A stretch of 8,852 nt of DNA from a virus (Duplodnaviria; Heunggongvirae; Uroviricota; Caudoviricetes), in IMG/VR virus record IMGVR_UViG_2778261136_000008, positions 1-8,852 of that record; one strand, written 5' to 3'. Below are positions 6,018 to 6,934 of this stretch, in pieces. Both the position numbers and the translations under genes were made by a program. Every line of letters begins with the position of its first letter. Within the stretch, counting starts at the first letter, position 1. The notes beneath the pieces were generated by a model that made no database searches, was not told the origin of the DNA, and saw only the letters and a list, made by a program, of their open reading frames with translations.

Positions 6018-6305
6018 TTAGTTCTGCTTGGGGAATTGGCGTCTGGCGTGTACTACACTCACGATCTCAATGCTTAAAGTGGCTACACGGTAAAGAATTA
6101 TATAGTTAGGGTGAGCTACAATCTCACGCAAGCCAGGTACTCTGTCGCTTGGTGGGTATAAATACGGGTGTTCGGATAACGGCAGCACACACCCCCTTAA
6201 TCGCTGCCATAAGCGTTCTGCCGCATCTATGTCGAAACGAGCAATATAACTAGTTATATCATCTAGGTCGGTATCTGCGCTTTCAAGCCATAACACGGGT
6301 AACAT
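6018..6305 (-). CDS. parE: ParE/RelE-family toxin (95 aa), toxin of a paaA-parE-type module
   Basis: Typical ParE size and sequence character (MLPVLWLESADTDLDDITSYIARFDIDAAERLWQRLRG...). It starts 3 nt after the stop of a small antitoxin-like ORF, with GGAG upstream. Confidence 0.8.
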   Translation of the reverse strand: MLPVLWLESADTDLDDITSYIARFDIDAAERLWQRLRGCVLPLSEHPYLYPPSDRVPGLREIVAHPNYIILYRVATLSIEIVSVVHARRQFPKQN

Positions 6306-6308
6306 TTA

Positions 6309-6497
6309 CTACTTACTCCGTTCCTTGCGCATTTTAGCAAAGCGTTCTGCCATTCTGCGCTCAACCTCGTCATGGGGAATTGCTGGGCGCGGATTTGCAA
6401 GGCTCGCTGCTACTTTCGCACGCAGCCATTCGTTGTAACTGTTTTCTTGTTCAATGGTTTCGAACTCAGAAACCATTGGTGAAAGGGCCGTATTCAT
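6309..6497 (-). CDS. paaA: PaaA-type antitoxin (62 aa)
   Basis: The ORF track shows an 83-aa form (6309..6560) that overlaps the upstream regulator. The internal ATG at 6495..6497 has a strong GGAGG 6 nt upstream and gives MNTALSPMVSEFETIEQENSYNEWLRAKVAASLANPRPAIPHDEVERRMAERFAKMRKERSK, which matches my recollection of E. coli O157 PaaA2. Confidence 0.8.
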   Translation of the reverse strand: MNTALSPMVSEFETIEQENSYNEWLRAKVAASLANPRPAIPHDEVERRMAERFAKMRKERSK

Positions 6498-6526
6498 GGC
6501 ACACCTCCGTCTGTGTATGGTGGTCA

Positions 6527-6934
6527 TTATGCTCGATGCCCTTTCCGGGCAGCGAGCCATCTTTCAATTGTGCGCTCCATTAACTCTTTTTTGTCTTTCA
6601 TCTCCTGAAGCATTTGTCCCTGTTCTTCCTCTGGGAATGCACCAAATGTCTGAAGTAGCTCTCTTTGCTTCGGACCTATTTTCATTGTGTCAGGTACCAC
6701 AATCTGTTCGTCCTCACTTGGTGGCAACATAAACCAATATGGAGGGAATCCTGTTACTTCAGAAAGTTTATCAAGATTAGCCATTGATGGGCTTGTGATG
6801 CCATGAACCCACTTTTGGACCGATTGTTGGGCAACACCTATTCTGCGGGCTAGTTCTGCTTGCTTAAGCCCTGTTTTTTCCAGCACCAGTTTTATCCGGT
6901 ACGTGGTTATTTCAAGAGTGGTCATTCGCTTCAT
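6527..6934 (-). CDS. paaR: HTH (XRE-family) transcriptional repressor, DicA-like / PaaR-like (135 aa); candidate prophage repressor and first gene of the toxin-antitoxin operon
   Basis: N-terminal HTH (LKQAELARRIGVAQQSVQKWVHG) and a C-terminal region resembling DicA (IGPKQRELLQTFGAFPEEEQGQMLQEMKDKKELMERTIE versus DicA LSPKELELLELFNALPESEQDTQLAEMRARVKNF). Same length as DicA. Divergent from a Cro-like gene across an operator-rich spacer. Confidence 0.8.
   Translation of the reverse strand: MKRMTTLEITTYRIKLVLEKTGLKQAELARRIGVAQQSVQKWVHGITSPSMANLDKLSEVTGFPPYWFMLPPSEDEQIVVPDTMKIGPKQRELLQTFGAFPEEEQGQMLQEMKDKKELMERTIERWLAARKGHRA

Follow-up and report, generated by a model that had tools for sequence, protein, structure and literature searches.

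A DicA/PaaR-family repressor gene preceding paaA-parE in a Qin/CP-933P-like prophage, a predicted heteroimmune variant of the CP-933P switch

Gene order and gene calls

The stretch analyzed here (IMG/VR record IMGVR_UViG_2778261136_000008, positions 1 to 8,852; 8,852 nt, hereafter the window) carries, judged from its sequence, the immunity region of a lambdoid E. coli prophage (Qin/CP-933P-like). The feature under study, on the minus strand at 6018..6934, consists of a regulator gene followed by the antitoxin gene paaA and the toxin gene parE. Together with the divergent genes ydaS and ydaT, these genes very probably form a heteroimmune variant of the published paaR2-paaA2-parE2/ydaS-ydaT switch of E. 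coli O157:H7 prophage CP-933P, including the mechanism proposed for that switch; regulation, co-transcription, operator binding, a leaderless start, toxicity and its neutralization would carry over to this allele by homology. Protein and RNA families were taken from Pfam, NCBIfam, PHROG and Rfam, structures from the PDB, and genomes from a set of 5426 complete E. coli sequences. Loci used for comparison included those of strain 2012C-4227 (L001), O157:H7 strain OK1 (L002, a CP-933P-type locus), E. coli 00-3076 (L004, NZ_CP027584.1), K-12 Qin (L005) and E. coli Z1323CEC0014 (L008).

The regulator gene, predicted to encode the immunity repressor (DicA/PaaR family, CI analogue), lies at 6527..6934 on the minus strand (135 amino acids; Pfam HTH_3, E=1.3e-13), paaA at 6309..6497 on the same strand (62 amino acids; PF21217 PaaA2, E=1.4e-19, 70.2 bits against a cut-off of 27, the sole Pfam match of this protein) and parE at 6018..6305, also on the minus strand (95 amino acids; ParE_toxin PF05016, E=8e-16, 58.8 bits against a cut-off of 23); all three family matches exceed the curated Pfam cut-offs. 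ParE shares 93.5% identity with ParE2 of O157:H7 (compared with L002; PDB 5cw7_B, E=1.2e-57) and PaaA 95.2% with PaaA2 (compared with L002; PDB 3zbe_A, E=4.3e-34), the structures of both O157:H7 proteins having been solved (PDB 3zbe and 5cw7). By Pfam, PaaA has no DNA-binding domain. An earlier reading of the window, made from its letters without database searches (the sequence-only reading), had described a regulator, antitoxin and ParE toxin in this order on one strand with gaps of about 30 and 3 nt and had likened them to the paaR-paaA-parE modules of O157 prophages; its coordinates were right, the gaps measure 29 nt (6498-6526) and 3 nt (6306-6308) to the nucleotide, and the likeness to the O157 modules is real at the toxin and antitoxin identities just given.

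The 3-nt gap between paaA and parE is itself TAA, and the junction reads TAG-TAA-ATG. The mechanical open reading frame of paaA extends up to 6560, and the ATG at 6497 is preceded, 5 nt upstream, by the Shine-Dalgarno sequence GGAGG. A consensus scan of the minus strand gave no promoter-like or terminator-like site in either gap and zero promoter-like sites in 6498-6934, and RNA folding of 46 nt around the regulator/paaA gap was no better than that of shuffled sequence. Relative to closer relatives, dN/dS was 0.05-0.13 for all three genes (0.05-0.09 for parE, 0.10-0.13 for paaA), reaching up to 0.28 against the divergent allele of locus L003; the regulator, paaA and parE are therefore maintained as coding genes under purifying selection.

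Comparison with the CP-933P switch

According to Hallez et al. (2010), as cited in PMC8630535, paaR2-paaA2-parE2 is a three-gene operon, its operon status having been shown, PaaA2 has no DNA-binding domain and PaaR2 represses transcription. In the experimental work of Jurenas et al. (2021; PMC8630535) on CP-933P, PaaR2, whose gene takes the position of cI and dicA, was a functional CI analogue without a RecA-cleavable domain. The three genes were transcribed from a PRM-like promoter and PaaR2 was translated from a leaderless PRM transcript. PaaR2 bound the 97-bp spacer between paaR2 and ydaS and repressed an additional promoter, PL, which lies beyond parE2 and is flanked by similar operator repeats. 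YdaS took the part of Cro and YdaT that of CII, the locus was bistable, and the CP-933P region stabilized an unstable plasmid (addiction). In the YdaT structure paper (PMC9986795), paaA2-parE2 replace rexA-rexB.

The window shares with CP-933P (Sp12) the gene order, the strands and the place of the module, which has the early-left genes of the dicB side on one flank and ydaS-ydaT-O on the other. Besides toxin and antitoxin, the likeness covers the C-terminal domain of the regulator (53% identity), the lack of an S24 domain in either regulator, an OL/PL element at the aligned position and a leaderless-type geometry of −10 element and ATG. The two loci differ in the parts that would determine specificity of immunity: the N-terminal XRE HTH_3 domain of the window regulator is unrelated in sequence to the N-terminal domain of PaaR2, the window YdaS has no significant similarity to its CP-933P counterpart, YdaT is 31% identical, the predicted operators are ACACTTT-N-AAAGTGT-like as against the GTTTAGTAA-type of CP-933P, the divergent spacer measures 107 bp as against 97 bp, and the CP-933P YdaT box is absent from the window. 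Since regulator, YdaS, YdaT and operators are thus of another type, the window has a different predicted immunity specificity. At the DNA level, the window is homologous to O157 only from the downstream flank of parE up to the start of paaA (5757-6498), where the homology ends.

ydaS, the predicted Cro analogue, is on the plus strand at 7042..7320 (92 amino acids; Pfam YdaS_toxin, E=1.3e-10, and HTH_3; PHROG 35) with a Shine-Dalgarno sequence GGAG 8 nt upstream, and is 74-85% identical to ydaS of loci L003 and L007. It overlaps by 17 nt with ydaT, the predicted CII analogue (7304..7825, plus strand; 173 amino acids; Pfam YdaT_toxin; PHROG 163, a family named "CII-like transcriptional activator", E=2.7e-41). 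As an observation apart from the switch, the 5′ part of ydaT (7293-7583) is 89% identical in DNA to ydfX/ydfW of K-12 Qin (L005, 1858-2149), and Qin ydfX and ydfW therefore look like remnants of ydaT, the CII analogue.

Predicted operators, promoters and terminator

The regulator gene and ydaS diverge across the 107-bp spacer at 6935..7041, a predicted OR-like divergent control region. The half-site AAAGTGT occurs in it at 6954, 6980 and 7003 (spacing 26 and 23 bp), which agrees with the operator-rich spacer next to a Cro-like gene of the sequence-only reading. Around these half-sites, three 15-bp operators were predicted, read on the minus strand, at 6946-6960 (ACACTTTTTTTGTGT), 6972-6986 (ACACTTTCAAGCTGA) and 6995-7009 (ACACTTTAAAAGTTA). 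Just beyond parE, at 5925..5967 on the minus strand, is a predicted OL/PL-like region with two further predicted operators at 5930-5944 (GCACTTTTAAAGTTA) and 5953-5967 (ACACTTATAAAGTTA), spaced 23 bp. Three sites in the spacer and two just beyond parE correspond to an OR/OL layout. These five 15-mers fit ACACTTT-N-AAAGTGT at 11-12 of 14 positions, and elsewhere in the window no 15-mer fits at 11 or more; the consensus was derived from the same five sites, and the independent evidence is the count of an 11-mer and the comparison across loci. Three copies of the 11-bp palindrome ACTT[A/T]TAAAGT are present in the window (5932, 5955 and 6997), all of them flanking the operon. With one mismatch allowed and both strands searched, there were 5 matches, as against 0.18 expected from shuffled sequences.

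In loci L003 and L007, which belong to the immunity group of the window and have regulators about 89-90% identical to its own, the half-sites, the −10 element and its spacing to the ATG are conserved. In L008, with a regulator 65% and a YdaS 54% identical, the half-site reads AACTGT instead of AAGTGT at OR as well as at OL (operator regions at 1800-1960 and 2834-2971 of that locus, in which paaA is annotated as frameshifted), while the flanking sequence, the PL −35 TTGAC and the spacing of the PRM −10 to the ATG are retained. This coordinated change of half-sites at OR and OL is the strongest computational evidence that the regulator and YdaS have their operators at the predicted sites. Aligned column by column, the OL/PL position coincides with the published PL933P/OL of O157 (L002), where the published TTTAGT/AAACTAAAC-type repeats stand in its place; across loci the left flank and the −35 TTGAC are conserved at OL, and each immunity type has an operator sequence of its own.

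Candidate promoters were read by eye and are supported by conservation. Predicted PR (plus strand) has TTGATA at 6986-6991, a spacer of 17 nt and TATAAG at 7009-7014, and the third OR site falls inside this spacer. Predicted PRM (minus strand) has a −10 element TAAAAT at 6946..6941 that ends 6 nt before the ATG at 6934, a spacing that implies a leaderless mRNA. Predicted PL (minus strand) has a perfect −35 TTGACA at 5953..5948, a spacer of 17 nt and a weak −10 CATCCT at 5930..5925. After parE, an intrinsic-terminator-like hairpin was recognized by folding at 5978..6004 on the minus strand (CCGUCUC-AUCUC-GAGGCGG, then UUUUUGUU); its stem is GC-rich and 7 bp long, and its 61-nt context gave z=-2.1. 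This hairpin is absent from the listing of the consensus scan.

The regulator

The regulator combines an N-terminal canonical XRE helix-turn-helix with a C-terminal PaaR2/DicA-like domain. Its N-terminal domain gave the 434 and P22 c2 repressors as best PDB matches; the PaaR2 N-terminal domain structures 7nkv and 8c3k were matched by PaaR2 and not by the window regulator. Residues 81-135 align with PaaR2 69-123 at 53% identity and the rest of PaaR2 is unaligned, so that homology to PaaR2 does not extend over the whole length. With K-12 DicA, identity is 34% over residues 25-131 (109 amino acids), and the NCBIfam DicA model NF007257 aligns with residues 12-132 of 135 (E=1.6e-17), at 63.6 bits under the curated cut-off of 101. 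In a multiple alignment, the C-terminal motif ELLxxFxAxPExEQ is common to the window regulator, DicA and PaaR2. Neither Pfam nor NCBIfam gave an S24 peptidase (autocleavage) domain in the protein, which is only 135 amino acids long, and the regulator is probably a short, non-cleavable repressor of the DicA/PaaR family. The description of the regulator as DicA-like in the sequence-only reading thus holds, by the identity to DicA and a near-full-length NCBIfam alignment, though one below the cut-off, and the relationship proposed there to ParE2, PaaA2 and DicA is borne out by pairwise alignment; for PaaR2 it extends to the C-terminal 55 or so residues only.

Among phage records, the nearest relatives of the regulator are annotated as cI, dicA or Gifsy repressors. 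This regulator allele occurs in none of these records (the best match, at 47%, is partial, and matches that span most of the protein are at 34-36%), and the only type of the module among them is that of PaaR2 (phage Evi); there is therefore no inducible-phage evidence for this immunity type. As the sequence-only reading had it, the regulator is the sole repressor candidate: none other was found in the window, and by product names no other repressor is annotated in a 41.5-kb stretch of strain 2012C-4227, whose immunity region is about 98.6-99.9% identical to that of the window. This stretch comprises int, adjoined on one side by tail genes and followed on the other by the early, Q/antiterminator and lysis genes as far as the beginning of the portal gene.

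K-12 Qin gives a second comparison. DicA is likewise 135 amino acids long with an XRE helix-turn-helix and the C-terminal motif, and its gene, upstream of ydfA(DUF1391)-dicF-dicB, diverges from a Cro-like gene (layout dicC / dicA-ydfA-ydfB-ydfC-dicF-dicB). In Qin, the interval between dicA and ydfA holds no toxin-antitoxin pair, whereas in the window paaA-parE is inserted there; the window regulator also stays below the cut-off of the DicA family. The likeness to lambda cI-rexA-rexB is by analogy only: a repressor gene and accessory "moron" genes read from PRM as a leaderless mRNA, flanked by OR and OL and divergent from cro-cII-O. There is no sequence homology to lambda beyond the helix-turn-helix, the window regulator has no RecA-cleavable S24 domain, and a type II toxin-antitoxin pair stands in for RexAB as accessory genes.

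Proposed mechanism and alternative explanations

By analogy with CP-933P, a leaderless PRM-type transcript would start at the repressor gene and continue through paaA and parE to the terminator at about 5978-6004. Repressor bound at the three OR sites would turn off PR (ydaS-ydaT-O) and tune PRM, and repressor bound at the two OL sites would turn off the leftward ydfA-dicF-dicB operon. YdaS would act as the Cro analogue, competing for the repressor sites, and YdaT as the CII analogue. Transcription of the toxin-antitoxin pair, in the position of rexAB, would then depend on the immunity switch. If the region were lost, the labile PaaA would be degraded by Clp proteases and the stable ParE left behind would kill or arrest the cell, whereby the immunity region of the prophage would be stabilized (addiction).

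Several observations weigh against this interpretation. In its DNA-binding domain, the regulator is, by sequence, not homologous to the N-terminal domain of PaaR2. For the regulator gene, the Prokaryotic Genome Annotation Pipeline (PGAP) picks M4 (6925) as start instead of M1 (6934), which disagrees with a leaderless start at M1. The consensus promoter scan listed none of PR, PRM and PL; the −10 TATAAG of PR lacks T at position 6, and the −10 CATCCT of PL and the −35 of PRM are weak. The CP-933P YdaT box TTGATTN6AATCAA is absent from the window (4 matches at 3 mismatches, with 7 expected), so that no PRE-like element can be assigned and the PRE/CII step is only presumed. For CP-933P itself, PMC8630535 reports that a toxin-antitoxin reporter gave appreciable expression whichever state the switch was in, and that no ParE2 activation was detected in either state. 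The state of the repressor therefore does not simply set toxin activity, and functional coupling of immunity and toxin may be weak.

The functional proposals of the sequence-only reading are affected to different degrees. That immunity and toxin expression share one promoter is supported by homology and is correct in kind but not new, having been published for CP-933P (PMC8630535). Its corollary, that repressor-controlled transcription sets toxin and antitoxin levels, does not simply apply, given the CP-933P reporter. It had further suggested an addiction or abortive-infection link; addiction has been shown for the CP-933P homologue, and abortive infection is unsupported both here and in PMC8630535.

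The same reporter result would fit a different arrangement, in which paaA-parE was inserted beside the repressor gene as an autonomous pair under a promoter of its own and immunity and toxin-antitoxin expression are uncoupled. The end of the window/O157 homology at the start of paaA marks the pair as a separable mosaic unit, and the PaaA-ParE complex by itself reportedly exerts partial repression on the paaR promoter (review, PMC4803016). Such an insertion would need a promoter that was not found, however: the 29-nt gap holds a Shine-Dalgarno sequence only, with neither a terminator-like fold in it nor a promoter-like site on the minus strand up to the start of the regulator gene. PaaA has no DNA-binding domain, the cassette directly follows a repressor gene on the same strand in all relatives examined, and operon status has been shown for the homologue (Hallez et al., 2010, as cited in PMC8630535). 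We consider an autonomous insertion improbable. The regulator might alternatively be dedicated to the toxin-antitoxin pair, as the DNA-binding module of a "split antitoxin", with the immunity gene outside the window. Its occupation of the dicA/cI position, divergent from the Cro and CII analogues, speaks against such a role, as do the nearest phage homologues (annotated cI, dicA or Gifsy repressors) and the lack of another annotated repressor in the 41.5-kb stretch of 2012C-4227. XRE helix-turn-helix domains are common in antitoxins, and the regulator has weak NCBIfam matches to HipB, MqsA and Y4mF-type antitoxins; in L004, moreover, a window-like regulator stands second, behind a PaaR2-like one, without cognate operators. 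Recurrence of the operator motif beyond parE, upstream of ydfA-dicF-dicB, would nevertheless be needless for a pure toxin-antitoxin regulator, and this explanation appears very improbable. A repressor gene co-transcribed with paaA-parE, as in CP-933P, remains the preferred interpretation.

Distribution and exchange of the cassette

The paaA-parE cassette was found in about 620 of the 5426 genomes, mostly at 90-95% DNA identity. The region from the regulator gene to ydaS was covered to at least 80% in about 46 genomes, 15 of these at 95% identity or more. No match covered at least 80% of the whole window in the 5426 genomes, the best reaching 78% at 95.7% identity. The window is a mosaic, the immunity region being closest to 2012C-4227 and the int-exo-dicB left arm fitting other prophages better. 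Among the matches listed, O157:H7 genomes matched a 69-base stretch of ydaS only, with the regulator gene unmatched, and the alternative toxin-antitoxin allele of L003 had no O157:H7 match.

L004 carries an operon of four genes at 2468-3768: a PaaR2-like regulator gene, a window-like helix-turn-helix regulator gene, paaA and parE. The first regulator is 74% identical to PaaR2. The second is 62.5% identical to that of the window and 153 amino acids long, and its C-terminal extension overlaps paaA by 32 nt. OR and OL of this locus are both of the PaaR2 type, and the second repressor is therefore without cognate operators nearby. The AACTGT half-sites of L008 suggest a third immunity specificity, and one cassette, conserved at about 93-95% protein identity, is thus predicted to be coupled to at least three operator specificities, those of the window, L008 and PaaR2 types.

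As a tentative proposal, and one that we regard as rather unlikely, paaA-parE could be a portable "immunity-region guard" that is shared among heteroimmune lambdoid prophages with the joint at or near the start of paaA, L004 being the footprint of a swap. If so, the immunity swap in L004 kept the addictive cassette and the old repressor gene adjacent to it, which was not replaced. The proposal of Jurenas et al. (PMC8630535) that the toxin-antitoxin pair limits recombination in the immunity region would then have natural evidence, and the retained second repressor could add superinfection immunity. A cassette found across several specificities provides natural material for testing stabilization of immunity regions against recombination, but opens no new mechanism. 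The value of the analysis lies mainly in annotation: the trio named "helix-turn-helix / hypothetical / RelE-ParE toxin" becomes a prophage immunity repressor with PaaA-ParE; for its neighbours, "toxin YdaT" and the gene of the YdaS type, CII analogue and Cro analogue are better labels than toxin.

Flanking genes

To the left, on the minus strand, the window holds a DUF1391/ydfA-like gene, the DicF small RNA (sRNA), dicB, a DUF1482 gene, an exonuclease gene, xis and int. The DUF1391 (ydfA-like) gene (5594..5746; Pfam DUF1391) opens the presumed PL operon, which continues toward dicF and dicB. The DicF sRNA is at 4547-4598 (Rfam RF00039; 62 bits, with the gathering score at 48), dicB at 4171-4359 (NCBIfam, 111 bits) and the DUF1482/ydfD-like gene at 3986-4174, all on the minus strand. 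Since DicF, dicB and DUF1482 lie downstream of predicted PL, the early-left operon resembles that of Qin, and the same repressor would control it. The "exonuclease" (1419-3890, minus strand) is a protein of 823 amino acids with a C-terminal Rv2179c-like 3′-5′ exoribonuclease domain (Pfam E=3.5e-66) and a long acidic N-terminal region without a Pfam family match.

The right edge of the immunity region is the gene for an O-like replication initiator at 7806..8771 on the plus strand (PHROG 391, a family of O-like initiators, E=7.8e-91; start according to the PGAP annotation of L001). Inside this gene, at 8271-8304, is a perfect 12-bp tandem repeat, ACAGAGAATACA, in 2.8 copies, which encodes TENTTENTTEN and, as in lambda O, may represent an origin element of the iteron kind.

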